Shown: piece after piece, positions 4,223 through 58,916 of the stretch
Numbering within the stretch: position 1 is the first letter of the stretch
How the letters are laid out: every line of letters begins with the position of its first letter
Origin: Nitrospirota bacterium
GTDB taxonomy: Bacteria > Nitrospinota_A > UBA7883
Assembly: GCA_024275315.1 (NCBI GenBank)
Contig: JAJRZK010000027.1
Span: 68,714 to 132,713, forward strand
Direction of reading: 5' to 3'
DNA: 64,000 bases
Notes under the pieces: model-generated
What the model saw: only the letters and a program-made list of their open reading frames with translations
Told to the model about the DNA's origin: nothing
Database searches by the model: none
Program-made: the position numbers and the translations under genes

Positions 4223-5479
4223 TCAATTCTTCCGTTTTCCGCTGTCTTGTGTTTTCACAGGGAGTTCGATTACGAAACGGCTCCCCTCGCCGGGGGCGCT
4301 TTCCACCCGGATCCTGCCTTTATGCGCTTTTACAGCCATATGGCAAAAGGCAAGCCCCAGCCCAGAGCCCCCTCGAGCTTTTTTCTCTCCCACCTGGTGG
4401 AATTTTTTGAAAATGCTTTTCTGAAGCTCTTTGGGAATACCGGAGCCCTGATCCGTTACGAGGATTTCCACGCAACCCCTGTCCGGCCGGTTTAAAGCTG
4501 TCAGCGTCACCTCGCTATTCTCGGGCGAATGTTCCGACGCGTTTATCAGCAGATTGGCCAGCACCCGCTCCATCAGGGGCCGGTCGGCGAAAAAGACAAC
4601 CTCATCCCCGGGCATGTCGGCTCTCGTTCTTATCTCATTTAGCTTGAACACATTCCTGAGCTTTCCCAGCGCGGTGTCCACAAGCTGTTTCGCATCGATT
4701 CTCTCCGGCTTGAGCTCTATCCTCCCCTCTTCCATCCTGCTGATGTCCAGGAGGTTGCCGATCATGCGCGACAGATCGCTGGTCCCGATTTCCGCAGATT
4801 CCAGGCAGGAAAGGGAAAATTTATCCAGGTCGCTCGACTTTATCATATCTATGTTCGCCCCGATTTCCTGGAGCGGCCCTTTCATGTCGTGTATGACCAT
4901 GTGTATCAGGTCCTGCTTCAGCTTTTCGAGCTTGCGAAGCTTTGAATTGGCTTTTTTGAGCTTGTTCCTTTCCCGCCTGATATCCTCGGTAAGTTTGGCG
5001 TTTTCCACCACCGGGCTTATTCTGCGCACCCATTTGTCCAGTATGACGGCTTCTTTTTTAGTGTACGGCCCCGAATCGATCTTGTCTGAAATGTTGAATA
5101 TCCCCACAACGCCCCCCTGGGTCTCGATAGGGGAGCTGATGAACATATTTTCCCCATTGCCACCAGGCCTTCGCATAAGACGCGCCAGCTCCGGCTGATC
5201 TTTTTTCGAGTCGCCTGTGCGGATGATTTTTCCGTGTCGATAAGCGCGAAGAGAGATCGAATCCTCACTGAGCTTTTGATGTTTACCGGTCAGGTCAAGG
5301 TTGGTCGAGGCTCTGACAACCAGGGTTTCATCCTCGATTATCATGATAGATCCGGAGCGCGAATTCATTTTCCCGAGAATAAACTTCAACAGGTCGCTCA
5401 GTTTCATATCGAAACTTCGTGACGTATCCATCATTATGTTCATCGCCCTTACAAGGGCTCTGGCTTCTGTGGAATCCAT
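4223..5479 (-). CDS. GAF-domain sensor histidine kinase
   Basis: N-terminal GAF, coiled coil, HisKA H-box (HDMKGPLQEI), HATPase_c (N, G1 and G2 boxes: NLLINASEHS, DQGSGIP, GGSGLGL). Confidence 0.82.
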   Translation of the reverse strand: MDSTEARALVRAMNIMMDTSRSFDMKLSDLLKFILGKMNSRSGSIMIIEDETLVVRASTNLDLTGKHQKLSEDSISLRAYRHGKIIRTGDSKKDQPELARLMRRPGGNGENMFISSPIETQGGVVGIFNISDKIDSGPYTKKEAVILDKWVRRISPVVENAKLTEDIRRERNKLKKANSKLRKLEKLKQDLIHMVIHDMKGPLQEIGANIDMIKSSDLDKFSLSCLESAEIGTSDLSRMIGNLLDISRMEEGRIELKPERIDAKQLVDTALGKLRNVFKLNEIRTRADMPGDEVVFFADRPLMERVLANLLINASEHSPENSEVTLTALNRPDRGCVEILVTDQGSGIPKELQKSIFKKFHQVGEKKARGGSGLGLAFCHMAVKAHKGRIRVESAPGEGSRFVIELPVKTQDSGKRKN

Positions 5480-15722: not shown

Positions 15723-16759
15723 TGTACGCACCCCGAATACTCATAGCGGACGATGAAGAGACCATCTGCGCCGTGTTGCAAAGAGTGCTGGAAAAAGATG
15801 GCTATCGTGTGGACATTTGCCACGATGGCGACACGGCCATAAAGATGGCCTCCCAGACCGTGTACGACCTCGTGCTGACCGACCTGAAAATGCCCGGAAG
15901 CGACGGGCTGGAAGTTCTGAGAAAAGTGGCGGGGGGAACCACCGGAGCCGCCGTAATGCTCATGACGAATTATTCCACCGTGGAGACCGCCGTGGAAGCC
16001 ATGCGCCAGGGAGCGCGGGATTACATCATAAAACCGTTCGTTCACGACGATATCAGGATATCCGTCGCCAACACCCTGCGCGACACGCGGCTGGCGCGGG
16101 AAAACAAGCTTTTAAAAGAGGAGCTCAACAGGTCGATCAACCTGGAGGAGTTTATCGGGTCGTGCCCGAAAATAATGGACGTGTTCAAGTTGGTGAACAA
16201 AGTGGCTCCCACAGATTCGAGCGTCCTGGTCATCGGGGAGAGCGGCGTCGGCAAGGAACTGATTGCAAGAGCCATACACCGCCATTCCCAAAGAGCAAAC
16301 GAGCCTTTCGTTCCGGTAAACTGTGGAGCCCTGCCTGCAGAGCTTATGGAGTCGGAACTGTTCGGCCACGTAAAGGGAGCCTTCAGCGGCGCGGTGTCCA
16401 GCAAGCCGGGCCTGTTCCAGGAGGCCCGGGGAGGAGCCATTTTCTTCGATGAAATCGGAGAGCTTCCACCGGCGTTGCAGGTGAAGTTGTTACGAGTGTT
16501 ACAGGACCAGGTGATCCGGCCAGTCGGGTCCAGCAAATCCTTCAAGTGCGACGTAAGGATCATCACCGCCACGAACAAAAAGCTCGATATCGAAGTCGAA
16601 AACAAGACATTCCGCGAAGACCTGTATTACAGGATCAACGTGCTTACGATAGAGTTGCCCCCTTTAAGAGAGCGCGGCCAGGACATAGAGGAGCTGGCCG
16701 TACATTTCCTGAAAAAGCACGCTTCCAGGCTGAACCGGAACGTGGAAAGCATCCAGTAG
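15722..16759 (+). CDS. sigma-54-dependent response regulator (REC + AAA+), N-terminal 345 aa ending at an in-frame TAG
   Basis: REC (ILIADDEE...LVLTDLKMPG), Walker A GESGVGKE, GAFSGA, ESELFGH, Walker B. The TAG at 16757-16759 is in frame with the downstream HTH ORF. Confidence 0.8.
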   Translation: MYAPRILIADDEETICAVLQRVLEKDGYRVDICHDGDTAIKMASQTVYDLVLTDLKMPGSDGLEVLRKVAGGTTGAAVMLMTNYSTVETAVEAMRQGARDYIIKPFVHDDIRISVANTLRDTRLARENKLLKEELNRSINLEEFIGSCPKIMDVFKLVNKVAPTDSSVLVIGESGVGKELIARAIHRHSQRANEPFVPVNCGALPAELMESELFGHVKGAFSGAVSSKPGLFQEARGGAIFFDEIGELPPALQVKLLRVLQDQVIRPVGSSKSFKCDVRIITATNKKLDIEVENKTFREDLYYRINVLTIELPPLRERGQDIEELAVHFLKKHASRLNRNVESIQ

Positions 16760-39784: not shown

Positions 39785-41608
39785 GTGACGGAAACATTCA
39801 AACAAGCGCTGGAAAAACGCCTGCTGGTATGTGACGGCGCTTTCGGCGCCATGCTCTATTCCAAGGGTGTGACAATCAACCGGTGCTACGAAGAGCTGAA
39901 CCTGACCCAGCCCGACCTGGTGCGCGAACTCCACCGGGACTATATAAAAGCCGGCGCCGACATTATCGAGGCCAATACTTTCGGCGCCAACAGGTTCAAG
40001 CTCCGCCATTTCGGCCTGGAAGACAAGGTAAAACAGATCAACAGCACCGGGCTGGCGCTGGCGCTGGAGGAGGCGCGGGGTTCCGCGTTTGTCGCCGGGT
40101 CGATCGGCCCGCTGGGGTTGAGTGTGGAGCCATACGGTAAAATCACCATCTCCGAGGCGAGCGACGCTTTTCGCGAGCATGGCGCAGAGCTTGTGGAAAA
40201 CGGGGCGGACCTGATTATATTCGAAACATTCCATGATCTTAACGAGCTCAAGGCCGCCATAAAAGCCATCAGGTCGTTGTCGTCGGACATTCCCATAGTC
40301 GCCCAAATGGCGTTTGAAACCGACGGTAAAACCGTGCATGGCGCCACACCTTTCCAGGTGGTCAATGCGTTGGAGCGTCTGAATATAGACGCGGTCGGGG
40401 CGAACTGTTCCGTTGGTCCCGCCGACATGCTCGACGTGGTAAAAGCCATGGCCTCGTCGACGCGCCTTCCCGTGTTCGCCCAGCCGAACGCCGGCATGCC
40501 CAGGGTTGTGGACGACCGGCTGATATATCTAACCACACCCGAATACCTGCTGACGTATGGCAAACGGTTTATCCGCGCCGGGGCGCGGGTTGTGGGGGGG
40601 TGTTGCGGAACCACCCCTGCGCATACGGCCGCGCTGAAGGGGGCCGTGATGGCGTTGTCCCCTTCCAGGGTCGAGGTGAGCGAGACACCTCAAACAAAAG
40701 GCCGGGAGGAGATAAAGGAAACCCCACGAAAAGATAAAACCCCGATGTCCAAAAAATTGTGCGAGGGGAAATGGGTCCAGTCGGTGGAGCTTCTGCCCCC
40801 GAAAGGCCCGGACGCCACCCGTGTGCTGGGGCACGCGAAAAAGCTCAAGGAAGCCGGGATAGACTGCCTGAACATACCGGACGGTCCCCGGGCGATGGCG
40901 CGGATGAGCCCCATGTCGCTGGCGCTCCTGTTCAAAAACGAAATTGGTGTGGAGCCTATATTGCACTATACCTGCCGCGACAGGAACCTGTTGGGAATGC
41001 AATCGGACATCCTTGGAGCCCACGCTGTTGGTATTAAAAACATCCTTGCAATCACGGGCGACCCGCCGAAACTCGGCAATTATCCCAACGCGACCGCGGT
41101 ATACGACGTGGACGCCATTGGGCTGGTCAAAATGATCCGCAACCTTAACCGTGGGCTGGACATTGTCGGCAATGCGATCAACGGCCAGACGGCGATCCAT
41201 ATTGGTGTGGGAGTAAACCCGGGAGCCTCCAATATAGAGGAAGAGATCAGAAGGTTTGAATTGAAGGTGGAATCCGGGGCGGAGTTTTGCATGACCCAGC
41301 CCATTTTCGAGACAGAGAAGCTTTTCAGTTTTCTGGACAAGATCGAGCGATTCCGCATCCCGGTGCTGGTGGGTATTCTTCCGCTGGCCTCGCTTCGGTC
41401 CGCCGAGTTTCTGCACAACGAAGTCCCCGGAATGCAGGTACCGAAGAAAATTCGTGAAAGCCTGAAACGCGCCGGGGATGATGCTTTGGAAACGGGTGTG
41501 ATGATAGCCCGGGAGGCGTTGGAAGAGGCCAGGGGGCGTGTGCAGGGTGTGTATGTGATGGCGCCGGTGGGAGGCGCCGACACGGCGCTTAGGCTGCTTG
41601 GGGGATAA
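39785..41608 (+). CDS. bifunctional homocysteine S-methyltransferase (MetH N-terminal Hcy-binding domain) / 5,10-methylenetetrahydrofolate reductase
   Basis: Hcy-binding barrel with zinc-ligand Cys (GANCS...GGCCGTTP), a linker, then a MetF TIM-barrel (ILHYTCRDRN, ILAITGDPP). No B12-binding domain. Confidence 0.85.
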   Translation: MTETFKQALEKRLLVCDGAFGAMLYSKGVTINRCYEELNLTQPDLVRELHRDYIKAGADIIEANTFGANRFKLRHFGLEDKVKQINSTGLALALEEARGSAFVAGSIGPLGLSVEPYGKITISEASDAFREHGAELVENGADLIIFETFHDLNELKAAIKAIRSLSSDIPIVAQMAFETDGKTVHGATPFQVVNALERLNIDAVGANCSVGPADMLDVVKAMASSTRLPVFAQPNAGMPRVVDDRLIYLTTPEYLLTYGKRFIRAGARVVGGCCGTTPAHTAALKGAVMALSPSRVEVSETPQTKGREEIKETPRKDKTPMSKKLCEGKWVQSVELLPPKGPDATRVLGHAKKLKEAGIDCLNIPDGPRAMARMSPMSLALLFKNEIGVEPILHYTCRDRNLLGMQSDILGAHAVGIKNILAITGDPPKLGNYPNATAVYDVDAIGLVKMIRNLNRGLDIVGNAINGQTAIHIGVGVNPGASNIEEEIRRFELKVESGAEFCMTQPIFETEKLFSFLDKIERFRIPVLVGILPLASLRSAEFLHNEVPGMQVPKKIRESLKRAGDDALETGVMIAREALEEARGRVQGVYVMAPVGGADTALRLLGG

Positions 41609-41769
41609 TTGTGACCATTCCGTTTTTTTTGCGAAATCGATGTTTTTCTCTTTGTTTGAGCGGCGAAGTGGGAGGCGCCGACACGGCGCTTAGGCTGCTT
41701 GGGGGATAATTGTGACCATTCCGTTTTTTTTTGCGAAATCGACGTTTTTCTCTTTGTTTGAGCGGCGAA
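41567..41769. repeat. tandem direct duplication, 2 copies of ~101 bp (41567-41667 and 41668-41769), first copy spanning the last 42 nt of the metF-fusion gene
   Basis: The copies are near-identical. Differences are T8 vs T9 in a homopolymer and gatg vs gacg. The junction carries GTG microhomology. Confidence 0.8.
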
Positions 41770-41987
41770 TGTGTTATAGTTACTGGGCGAATGTCGGTTC
41801 GCCTGAATCTATCAGTTCCGGACGCTTGGCAGGGGGACAGCTCGCGTCGCCTGTGGTAATCAATAATTATTATTTCCCGATGCGTGCTCGAGTTGAGAAA
41901 ATCGTCCCTCTGCGCATTTTAAGAACGCTGTAAGACCAGAAGTAACCATAACTTTCTTGATCTCTATACATTTTGTGCGCTTAACAC

Positions 41988-43109
41988 ATGGCTAAACCAG
42001 AACAAGTCTCCGGAGTGCTGGACATCACCGACAAAGGTTTCGGTTTTTTGCGATCCATTGATAATGGCTACGCCATAAACCCGAAAGACCCGTACGTGGG
42101 GCAGAACGTGATCCGCAAATACTCTTTAAAGCCGGGTATGTTCATTAACGGCGTCGGGTCCAAGAAAAGCTCGAACCAGGCCAACCTCGCGCTGGACAGG
42201 ATCAACACGGTCGACGGGGGCCCCCTCGCGTCTGTGTCGAAACGGATACCGTTCCACAAGCTCACAGTCATCGACCCAACGGATAAACTGGTTCTGGAAA
42301 CCGGAGCCAAGCCTCTCACCACCCGTGTGCTGGACCTTTTTACACCGATTGGCAAAGGTCAGCGGGCGCTTATGGTATCACCGCCGAAAGCCGGCAAAAC
42401 CGTGTTCATAGAAGATATCGCCCACGGGGTGAAAAAAAACAATCCCGAAGCGATTGTAATAGTGTTCCTGGTGGATGAAAGGCCGGAGGAAGTCACACAG
42501 TTCAAGCGCAGTGTGGGTGGCGAAGTGGTGGCGACCAGTTTCGACGCTCCTCTCAACGAGCAGATCCGCCTGTCGGAGCTTCTTTTGGAACGGGTCATGC
42601 GCCTGGTGGAAGTCGGCAAGGACGTTGTGCTGATCGTCGATTCCCTCACTCGTATGGGCAGGGCCTTTAACAAGGCCACCGACACACGAGGCAAAACCCT
42701 GTCCGGAGGCGTTGGCGCGAACGCGCTGCAATTTCCCAGAAAGTTTTTCGGCGCGGCCCGCAACATAGAAAACGGAGGTAGCCTTACAATAGTGGCCACC
42801 TGCCTTGTGGACACCGGTAGCAGGATGGACGAAGTGATTTTCCAGGAGTTCAAGGGCACCGGCAACACGGAGGTGGTGCTGGACAGGAGCCTGGCGGAAA
42901 GCCGGGTGTTTCCCGCTGTCAACCTTGGTCTTTCCGGCACAAGAAAAGAAGAAAAGCTCCAGAGCGGCGAAGACCTGAATAAAATATGGACGTTGATGCG
43001 TGTGCTTTCGAGGGACAAAGGGTTTGAAAAGTACAAAGCGATGCTCAAGAAAATGAGCCAGACCAAATCCAACTACGAATTTCTCGACACCATACCTGCG
43101 ACAAGGTAA
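41988..43109 (+). CDS. rho: transcription termination factor Rho (short N-terminus)
   Basis: CSD-like RNA-binding (GVLDITDKGFGFLR), Walker A PPKAGKT, Q- and R-loops, Walker B VVLIVDSLTR. 373 aa with a long 380-nt leader upstream. Confidence 0.85.
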   Translation: MAKPEQVSGVLDITDKGFGFLRSIDNGYAINPKDPYVGQNVIRKYSLKPGMFINGVGSKKSSNQANLALDRINTVDGGPLASVSKRIPFHKLTVIDPTDKLVLETGAKPLTTRVLDLFTPIGKGQRALMVSPPKAGKTVFIEDIAHGVKKNNPEAIVIVFLVDERPEEVTQFKRSVGGEVVATSFDAPLNEQIRLSELLLERVMRLVEVGKDVVLIVDSLTRMGRAFNKATDTRGKTLSGGVGANALQFPRKFFGAARNIENGGSLTIVATCLVDTGSRMDEVIFQEFKGTGNTEVVLDRSLAESRVFPAVNLGLSGTRKEEKLQSGEDLNKIWTLMRVLSRDKGFEKYKAMLKKMSQTKSNYEFLDTIPATR

Positions 43110-56031: not shown

Positions 56032-57228
56032 ATGGTAACCGAGCTTGCTGAAGCTCCCGGGACTGAAACGGTTTGCGCGCCCGATTTTTCGATTTTCGTA
56101 GGTAAAAGTCCTGCGTTGCAATCGGTGCTTGACACCATCTCCAACCTGTTGGATAACGACTCGACAGTCCTGGTTTTAGGCGAGAGCGGCACCGGCAAGG
56201 AACTGATCGCAAGAGCCATACATTACAATTCAAACCGAAACCAATACCCCCTGGTGACCGTCAACTGCGGCGCGATACCCGAGGAATTGCTGGAATCGGA
56301 GCTGTTCGGTCATGAAAAGGGAGCGTTTACAGGCGCCATCCGCACCCGAATCGGCAAGTTCGAGCTGGCCGACAAGGGGACAATATTCCTTGACGAGATC
56401 GGAGACATGAGCCCCACGCTTCAGATAAAGCTGTTGCGGGTGCTCCAGGAGCATGAATTCGATCGAGTGGGCGGAAACAGGACCATGAAAGTATCTGTCC
56501 GCATCATAGCGGCGACAAACCAGAACCTGGAAAAAGCCATAGAGGAAGGCAGGTTCCGTGAAGACCTCTATTACCGGCTCAACGTCATCCCGATAGAAGT
56601 CCCAGCGCTGCGTTTCCGGGGCGATGATATCTCCCTGCTGGTGACGCATTTCATAAAAAACTTCAACGCGTTGAAAAACAGAAACATCTCCGGGATGAGC
56701 CAGGAGGCGATCAACCTGCTTCGGGCGTATACATGGCCAGGCAACATACGCGAACTCGAACACATGATCGAACGGCTTGTCGTGCTCAAGGCGAGCGGTG
56801 TCATAGAAAAGCAGGATCTGCCGCCTAAACTTCAAAATCTCGAATTACCACCGGACGACCAGCTATCCAAAGACATGCTTCTCGTTGGCGATCCGGATGA
56901 ATTGGCAGAAGAGCGTCTGTCCGCCCCGGCGATCAAAATCGCGCAACCTCCAAACGGGTCACCCGACAATGTCGGCGCCCGGAGCAACATCATTGAAAAC
57001 CATCCGGGGCGGACGGACGCTGATTTTCAGATTGAAGACTCGCCCACACTTCCGGAAGAAGGGATAAACCTCAAAGAAGCGGTAGACCGTTATGAAACCG
57101 CCCTGATCCTCGCCGCGCTCGACAGATGCGGCTGGGTGAAAAACAAGGCGGCCAACCTGCTGGGGCTTAACCGCACCACCCTGGTGGAAAAACTGAAAAA
57201 GAAAAAGCTGGTCAGAACAGAGGGATAA
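56032..57228 (+). CDS. sigma-54-dependent transcriptional activator lacking any N-terminal regulatory domain (AAA+ + long linker + Fis-type HTH)
   Basis: Walker [31 protein letters not shown]-finger. C-terminal HTH ([18 protein letters not shown]). Only ~30 aa precede the AAA+ domain. Confidence 0.85.
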
Positions 57229-57536: not shown

Positions 57537-58916
57537 ATGGGCGATCATATCGAAACCATAGCGCTTGTCGCGGATAAGTTCATGGTGGATATGAAAATAG
57601 AGGAGCAGCTCAAAAAGGAGGGATTTAACGCCGTCATGGTCAAAAAAGCGCCTGATCTTATAAAGGCGCTGGTAAAGCTGAGCCCCGCGATCATAATCAT
57701 CGACCTGGATCACCAAAACCAGGACAATCCCCTCGCCGTAATTTCCGCCATAAAAAAAGAAGCCCAACTCAAGGAATCCGAGGTGTTCATATATACCGAA
57801 GGAATCGATGTCAGAACTGAAGTGGCCCTGAGAAAGCTAAAGGTGCAATCCTATTTCACCAAATCGAAAAACACGGAACTATTGATAAATGGAGTGCGGA
57901 ACCATTTTTCATGGGACGAAATGACGCAGGAGTATAACCCGTGGGAAGACGAGGAGGAAAACGATGACGATTACATCTATGATTTGAGAGAAGAAGAGCA
58001 AATCATAGAAAAACAGCTGGTAAAACGTCCCCGCCATCGCCCGCCGGACCGGCCGTCCCGGCCAGCGGCGACTGATGGAGCCCCCACCGCGACCCCGGCA
58101 CAGCAACGTCGTCCCGCGCCTCCACCGCAAGAGGCCGCGCCTCCACCGCAAGAGGCCGCGCCTCCAGCGCGGGAAGAACCAGCCCCGGCGGCCAAGACGC
58201 CATCCGATATCGAGGAATCATCCATAAATCTTCCGGGAATGCTCCCTGAAGATCAAAAGGAAAGCGACACCAACGAGTTCATGGAAATGCTGACCGATTT
58301 TCAAAATGGCATCAGCAAAAAGCTCGACGATGTGGAAAAAGCGCCTGGACACGGACAGGCCGCCGAGGTTGAGAACCAGATAATACAAGACGGTCCGTTC
58401 AAGGCCGAAAACCTTACATCGGAAGGGGAAGCGCTATTGACCCAGCCGGAAAATTTCACCAACACCGACGAGTTCCAGGACCTTTTGAACGAGTTTCACG
58501 CCGGGTTGGACAACAAACTTGCAAACATGGAAAAAGGTCATGAATCTCACTACAACCTGGGCATCTCGTATTTTGAAATGGGGCTGTTCGAGCAGGCCCT
58601 GGAGCAGTTCGAAAAATGCGTTGGAACCCAGGAATACAAGCTGAGAAGCATGAACATGATAGGCGCCATTCACAGAAAGCTAGGCGCCTATGATAAAGCC
58701 GTGGAGTCTTTTAAGGCATGCCACATGAACGCGCCTGATGAATATTCCAAGCTCAGCTTCCGTTATGAAATCGCGGACACTTTTATGACCCAGGGGAAAA
58801 TGCGCGACGCTTACAAAATGTTCGCCACAGTCTACAAGGTGGACAAGGGGTTTAAGGACACCAGAGCCAAGTTGATAAAAATCAAATCGGCTCTTGAAGC
58901 GAACAACCAACCCTGA
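57537..58916 (+). CDS. pseudo-receiver-like N-domain / Pro-rich linker / C-terminal TPR protein (candidate MglA partner)
   Basis: N-terminal REC-like fold with degenerate acidic pocket (ALVADKFM, IIIIDLD). Pro/Ala-rich linker including tandem APPPQEA. C-terminal TPR-like repeats (YNLGISYFEMGLFEQALEQFEKC...). The stop overlaps the mglA-like start (TGATG). Confidence 0.7.
   Translation: MGDHIETIALVADKFMVDMKIEEQLKKEGFNAVMVKKAPDLIKALVKLSPAIIIIDLDHQNQDNPLAVISAIKKEAQLKESEVFIYTEGIDVRTEVALRKLKVQSYFTKSKNTELLINGVRNHFSWDEMTQEYNPWEDEEENDDDYIYDLREEEQIIEKQLVKRPRHRPPDRPSRPAATDGAPTATPAQQRRPAPPPQEAAPPPQEAAPPAREEPAPAAKTPSDIEESSINLPGMLPEDQKESDTNEFMEMLTDFQNGISKKLDDVEKAPGHGQAAEVENQIIQDGPFKAENLTSEGEALLTQPENFTNTDEFQDLLNEFHAGLDNKLANMEKGHESHYNLGISYFEMGLFEQALEQFEKCVGTQEYKLRSMNMIGAIHRKLGAYDKAVESFKACHMNAPDEYSKLSFRYEIADTFMTQGKMRDAYKMFATVYKVDKGFKDTRAKLIKIKSALEANNQP
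58116..58166 (+). repeat. 21-nt tandem repeat (gcgcctccaccgcaagaggcc x ~2.4) encoding APPPQEA repeats in the Pro-rich linker
   Basis: Direct tandem copies at 58116-58136 and 58137-58157, plus a partial third copy. Confidence 0.6.

Follow-up and report, generated by a model that had tools for sequence, protein, structure and literature searches.

A segment of 101 bp occurs twice in tandem in the window, by which we mean the whole stretch of 64,000 nucleotides of Nitrospirota bacterium DNA analysed here, between a gene for a homocysteine S-methyltransferase fused to methylenetetrahydrofolate reductase (MTHFR) and rho, the gene of the master termination factor. Taken together, the evidence makes it likely that this is a young, lineage-specific tandem duplication that arose without homology at its breakpoints, lies upstream of the rho transcription start, and is neutral or nearly so. 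It is of little significance alone, and is best regarded as a clean natural case of intergenic tandem duplication of very recent origin, with the end of one gene and the promoter of the next both spared. An earlier reading of the letters of this DNA (the sequence-only reading) had placed the duplication within a long rho leader and suggested that it could alter attenuation there; as detailed below, its description of the repeat stands almost entirely, and its placement and its regulatory suggestion are not supported.

The two copies abut directly, head to tail, with nothing between them. Repeat search recovered them as an exact 64-nt pair (41567–41630 and 41668–41731, spacing 101) and an overlapping 45-nt pair with one mismatch (41623–41667 and 41725–41769, spacing 102); chance alone would not be expected to give an exact match of this length in 64 kb. 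Alignment of the copies leaves two differences, the length of one homopolymer (T8 in the first copy and T9 in the second) and a single T/C transition. When the copies are aligned together with 20 nt of flank, similarity ends abruptly on both sides, giving the repeat sharp outer limits. A test for breakpoint microhomology found no shared base on either side, the boundaries being unambiguous, and the 20 nt preceding copy 1 match the final 20 nt of the unit at 8 of 20 positions. Neither a third copy of the unit (repeat search of the 64-kb window) nor any exact match to a 22-nt core of it (metagenome contig collection) was found, and within the window the unit carries no inverted-repeat ends, so that it does not qualify as a dispersed repeat or a miniature mobile element. 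The sequence-only reading had given these same abutting coordinates, the same homopolymer and transition differences, and an orphan gene end with its stop codon in the second copy, all of which repeat search and pairwise alignment bear out exactly; its count of 14 codons from the upstream gene should read 13 (VGGADTALRLLGG) plus TAA, position 41567 being in frame with the open reading frame (ORF) at 39785–41608. Its naming of the flanking genes, a metF fusion upstream and rho downstream, is likewise supported by Pfam, which resolves the former into homocysteine S-methyltransferase plus MTHFR. Tandem Repeats Finder failed to list the two-copy repeat of 101-nt period, whether run on the region or on the whole window and at any threshold tried. 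This silence is a miss by the tool and thus no evidence against the repeat, and scans relying on Tandem Repeats Finder alone would overlook two-copy events of this kind.

Which of the two states, one copy or two, is ancestral? Relatives were gathered by scanning GTDB genomes and JGI metagenomes for Rho, the matches being labelled as Nitrospinota or “Nitrospirae” metagenome-assembled genomes (MAGs). The closest Rho proteins in these scans of genome and metagenome contigs reach 74–79% identity; a 98%-identical Rho (P0121) came to light via the same 90% protein cluster as P0001, the Rho identical to that of the window. P0121 is encoded on JGI contig Ga0172420_10000499 (L161), which repeats the gene order of the window (BcrAD/HGD fusion, LOG, S-methyltransferase–MTHFR fusion, rho, CCA enzyme, CheD–response regulator) and carries a single copy of the unit, with a clean gap of about one unit in the alignment. 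As in the window, no bases are shared at the corresponding breakpoint sites of L161. Two more distant, syntenic loci, L002 and L083, also have one copy each. The spacer between the fusion gene and rho measures 379 nt in the window, or 278 + 101, and 270, 282, and 264 nt in L161, L002, and L083, respectively. Among the genomes compared, only that of the window shows two copies. Given that L161, L002, and L083 are all single-copy, the two-copy state is derived and so far confined to the lineage of the window. Comparison with sister strains, as proposed by the sequence-only reading, supports the recent event that it had named alongside an assembly artefact.

The sequence of the copies also gives a sense of the age of the event. 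The window and L161 are ~90% identical over their shared 11 kb and 78–81% identical at third codon positions, and in the non-coding part of the unit 47 of 58 positions agree (11/58 differ). The two copies within the window differ by one substitution in 101 nt (~1% divergence). If the copies have evolved neutrally and free of gene conversion, the age of the duplication would be roughly a twentieth of that of the L161 split, with a very wide error because the estimate rests on one event. L161 has C at the site of the transition. Copy 1, with T at 41641, therefore shows the derived base, and the copy nearer the promoter has kept the ancestral one. By these alignments, the duplication is young and lineage-specific.

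The position of the duplication relative to rho transcription is given by a conserved promoter-like element. The pattern TGnTAnAnT was sought in the 400–450 nt preceding rho in 11 loci (the window, L161, L001–L004, L083, and L162–L165), and exactly one match was found in nine of them (the window, L161, L001, L002, L003, L083, L162, L164, and L165), its end lying 172–264 nt from the rho ATG. Shuffling puts the probability of a chance match in the 170–240 range at 0.4–4.7% per locus. There is no match upstream of rho in L163, a locus similar to L162. The loci with the motif span five upstream contexts. In the window, L161, L002, and L083, rho follows the co-directional fusion gene; in L162 and L165 its neighbour is divergent, being a stand-alone MTHFR gene in the former and a LOG gene in the latter; L164 has a protein kinase gene there, and L001 a gene of the LuxR type. 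In a multiple alignment the block T.TG.TATA.T is invariant and the remainder barely aligns. The extended −10 element is identical in the window and L161, and the spacers of L002 and L083 have TGCTATACT and TGCTATAAT, respectively, ~50 nt past the stop codon. A T-tract is found upstream of the hexamer, at a spacing of 25 nt in the window, L161, L002, and L001, and of 26 nt in L003. Like extended −10 (TGn) promoters of the sigma-70 type, the element of the window combines TGnTAnAnT with a poor −35 region and a conserved position relative to rho; it differs from them in being a candidate, identified by conservation. Probably, then, rho is transcribed from an extended −10 promoter of its own, with a start site placed by the conservation of the motif. 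The right edge of the duplication (41769) falls 2 nt before the TG of this element, and relative to the putative start copy 2 would occupy about −18 to −119, and copy 1 about −120 to −220. The duplication therefore probably lies upstream of the rho transcription start and outside the leader.

What lies downstream of that start behaves differently from the duplicated unit. The putative leader of ~200 nt is 91.5–94% identical to its L161 counterpart, above the silent-site level (~80%), and the portion of the spacer conserved above that level is 41791–41987, not the duplicated unit. Such conservation suggests a functional rho leader in this Nitrospinota-like group. An excess of C over G is confined to the 3′ part of the putative leader; its predicted fold does not stand out from shuffled sequences (z = −1.0), and the leaders of eight loci do not align beyond the promoter block. 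The counterpart of promoter and leader in L161 is at 4791–5000. The 379-nt gap that the sequence-only reading had taken for a long rho leader containing the duplication is thus better described as an intergenic spacer, in which the conserved −10 element lies downstream of the unit. For a little-studied group, the element and the leader of ~200 nt mark the probable start of rho transcription and make the regulation of rho testable. The coordinates of the features are collected in Table 1.

Table 1. Features of the region from the fusion gene to rho, in window coordinates
Feature	Position	Strand	Basis and remarks
Homocysteine S-methyltransferase–MTHFR fusion gene	39785..41608	+	Pfam PF02574 (3.1e-71) and PF02219 (2.5e-39)
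Duplicated unit, copy 1	41567..41667	+	101 nt; pairwise alignment, repeat search; completes the upstream gene (genuine final 13 codons + TAA) and continues for 59 nt into T-rich non-coding sequence
T8 run in copy 1	41623..41630	+	T9 counterpart in copy 2 at 41724–41732; T7 in L161
Sole substitution between copies	41641	+	T in copy 1; C at 41743 in copy 2; C in L161
Duplicated unit, copy 2	41668..41769	+	102 nt; pairwise alignment, repeat search; orphan untranslated 13 codons + TAA (41668–41709), followed by the native upstream half of the rho promoter
T-tract (putative function)	41745..41749	+	Within copy 2; ends 25 nt upstream of the −10 hexamer (~−42 to −38)
Extended −10 element TGTTATAGT (putative rho promoter)	41772..41780	+	TG at 41772–41773, hexamer at 41775–41780
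Putative rho leader, ~200 nt	~41787..41987	+	Start placed from the −10 element; outside the duplication
rho	41988..43109	+	373 aa; Rho RNA-binding and ATPase domains (Pfam)

With these positions, the following course of events can be proposed. An illegitimate (homology-free) recombination or a template switch in the intergenic region between the fusion gene and rho would have duplicated a segment that begins at codon 595 of the fusion gene and ends near −18 in the rho promoter. The complete lack of microhomology at the junction fits homology-free recombination or template switching better than classical slippage. Copy 1 would have remained joined to the fusion gene, leaving its protein and stop codon unchanged, and copy 2 would have remained joined to the extended −10 element, leaving the rho promoter native out to about −119; because the duplication is in tandem, neither the gene end nor the promoter would have been broken. 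As a net result, the stop codon and the rho promoter would lie 101 nt further apart, with the untranslated orphan gene end in the added sequence, and the leader, where Rho-dependent attenuation would act, would be unaltered. The C-terminus of the fusion protein (...MAPVGGADTALRLLGG) aligns with those of L002 (...MAPVGGARTALKVLAE) and L083 (...MAPVGGADTALKVLA) and, to judge from these sequences, is unaltered by the duplication. Most likely, the duplication is selectively neutral or nearly so.

In bacteria, slippage and end joining commonly give rise to short indels and duplications, and junction bases shared at deletions have been reported (PMC6054270). The duplication in the window resembles other spontaneous short tandem duplications of bacteria in that its copies are arranged head to tail, are derived and near-identical, and leave each flanking context intact; it departs from them in having a junction free of microhomology, whereas events of slippage or alternative end joining usually share a few bases.

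Several points weigh against this account. The lack of any microhomology at the junction is unusual for duplications of the slippage type. A scan with consensus promoter models returned nothing in the spacer, where there is no good −35 element, and the −10 motif is not significantly enriched within the window (four matches versus 2.6 expected); the transcription start is placed from the conservation of the motif. The copy number of two is that of the assembled sequence. Lastly, neutrality is something that we infer, and read-through transcripts from the upstream gene would hold both copies, so that some effect on rho expression may exist.

First among the alternatives is that of an assembly artefact, in which a single-copy genome gained its apparent second copy in assembly, scaffolding, or polishing, either by joining overlapping contig ends unmerged or by placing two strain variants in series. 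There is something to be said for it: the source looks like a contig derived from a metagenome, as records of the identical Rho are limited to one NCBI contig of 154,690 bp and all relatives are MAGs, differences in homopolymer length and a transition are of the type seen between co-occurring strains, and a period of 101 nt is near common read and k-mer lengths. The sequence offers several points against it. Overlapping contig ends should leave two copies without any difference, but an indel and a substitution set these apart, and they measure 101 and 102 nt. The junction, at which GAGCGGCGAA is followed by GTGGGAGGCG, shares no bases with either flank, and a path through a k-mer graph would therefore need reads that truly contain it. 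A linearized bubble of strain variants fits poorly with variant sites placed asymmetrically, 56–64 nt from the left edge of the unit and 26 nt from the right. Elsewhere the window is clean, containing neither N nor another repeat of this sort, and homopolymer calling looks reliable, as long intact ORFs contain homopolymers of at least 8 nt. On balance we consider an artefact unlikely.

Second, the duplication might be real and adaptive, with the extra copy altering expression. The extra copy could supply a second block, complete or partial, to read-through from the upstream gene and so insulate the rho promoter, could change the far-upstream context of that promoter, or could tune rho through variable T8/T9 runs and copy number. 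The features that invite such a reading are the right breakpoint, only 2 nt from the extended −10 element, with the whole upstream half of the promoter duplicated; the retention of the ancestral C (41743) in the promoter-proximal copy, the derived T being in the distal one; and the variation of the T-run, which is 8 nt long in copy 1, 9 in copy 2, and 7 in L161. No terminator-like structure was found in the unit: a scan of 41400–42000 detected no terminator-like site except one inside rho, and an 8-bp hairpin at 41572–41590 is separated from the T run downstream by more than 30 nt and does not make an intrinsic terminator. The unit folds no differently from shuffled sequences (z = −0.15 and −0.71), nor does the whole spacer, and the segment with the stop codon and T run (41595–41670) is less structured than shuffles (z = +1.96). 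Against Rfam, the best match of the unit scores 19.6 bits, to a eukaryotic small nucleolar RNA model with a gathering score of 100 (E = 0.46). At the junction of copies 1 and 2 (…GAGCGGCGAA followed by GTGGGAGGCGCC…) there is no −10-like element at promoter spacing, so that a second promoter was not created. Furthermore, the promoter keeps its native surroundings as far as about −119, only one genome shows two copies, and a single substitution does not suffice to infer selection. An adaptive role of the extra copy is thus rather improbable, and its boldest form, a selected regulatory change to the master termination factor that reset Rho dosage in this lineage, is very much so; were it true, the doubled segment would cut read-through or ribosome traffic into the promoter, or act as a switch that varies in copy number and T-run length.

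Third, in the reading proposed from the sequence at the outset, the duplication is part of a 380-nt rho leader and changes autoregulatory attenuation by Rho. It is established for enterobacteria that rho is autoregulated through premature termination in its leader, and growth-dependent Rho levels have been reported in other bacteria. The review PMC12360218 cites Silva et al. (2019), on prematurely terminated rho mRNA, and Italiani et al. (2002). Like the autoregulated rho genes of E. coli and Salmonella, and of Caulobacter, the rho gene of the window appears to have a long untranslated leader, here an estimated ~200 nt, and by analogy this leader may work like the enterobacterial rho attenuator. 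As noted above, both copies would be included in transcripts that read through from the upstream gene. The duplication itself, though, differs from such a system in lying upstream of the −10 element, in having the wrong base skew for Rho loading, and in being absent from relatives. The conserved promoter element is downstream of it, rho has its own promoter in relatives whose upstream gene is divergent, and the unit lies outside the stretch of spacer that is more conserved than silent sites. As to composition, GC skew is +0.17 to +0.32 across 41580–41780, that is, G exceeds C, and the sequence is T-rich and not C-rich, which makes the unit unlike a Rho-loading (rut) site. An effect of the duplication on rho attenuation thus fails on both position and composition, and we give it hardly any credence.

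Finally, the orphan gene end downstream of an intact gene recalls the attL/attR boundaries of phages and integrative elements, an interpretation that we rejected as nothing has been inserted between the copies; in addition, the repeat extends 59 nt past the gene and ends in a promoter, and there is no integrase nearby.

Around the duplication, the fusion protein has PF02574 first and PF02219 after it, and other neighbours identified by Pfam are a LOG-family gene and a gene of the CCA-adding/poly(A) polymerase family. MTHFR is fused to homocysteine S-methyltransferase and co-directional with rho in the window, L161, L002, and L083. In L162 (1256–2128) and L163 (1214–2083), MTHFR is a stand-alone protein of 289–290 aa encoded on the opposite strand, in an otherwise similar gene order. 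The Rho of the window starts directly with the RNA-binding domain and has no Rho_N domain (PF07498). Absence of this domain is common to all relatives of 369–381 aa (Nitrospinota, Acidobacteriota, and Planctomycetota); Campylobacter-type matches carry PF07498.

The end of the fusion gene further gives rise to small ORFs. There, GGGGGATAATTGTG provides a Shine–Dalgarno-like motif together with a GTG. The GTG at 41611 opens an ORF of 32 codons (41611–41709) that continues in frame through the orphan gene end. In copy 2, the GTG at 41712 opens an ORF of 73 aa (41712–41933); the two are in different frames because of the T8/T9 difference. As candidate genes after the stop codon these ORFs were rejected, the GTG being GCG in L161 and the 73-aa product having no Pfam match. 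Annotators should accordingly call neither the orphan gene end nor the 73-aa ORF starting in copy 2 a gene.

Two other repeats of different kinds occur elsewhere in the window. A 21-bp tandem repeat of 2.7 copies with 97% matching (CCGCGCCTCCACCGCAAGAGG) lies at 58114–58170, inside a long ORF. A direct repeat of 179 nt with 70% identity occurs at 16214–16392 and 56158–56336, 40 kb apart, and probably represents paralogous gene segments.

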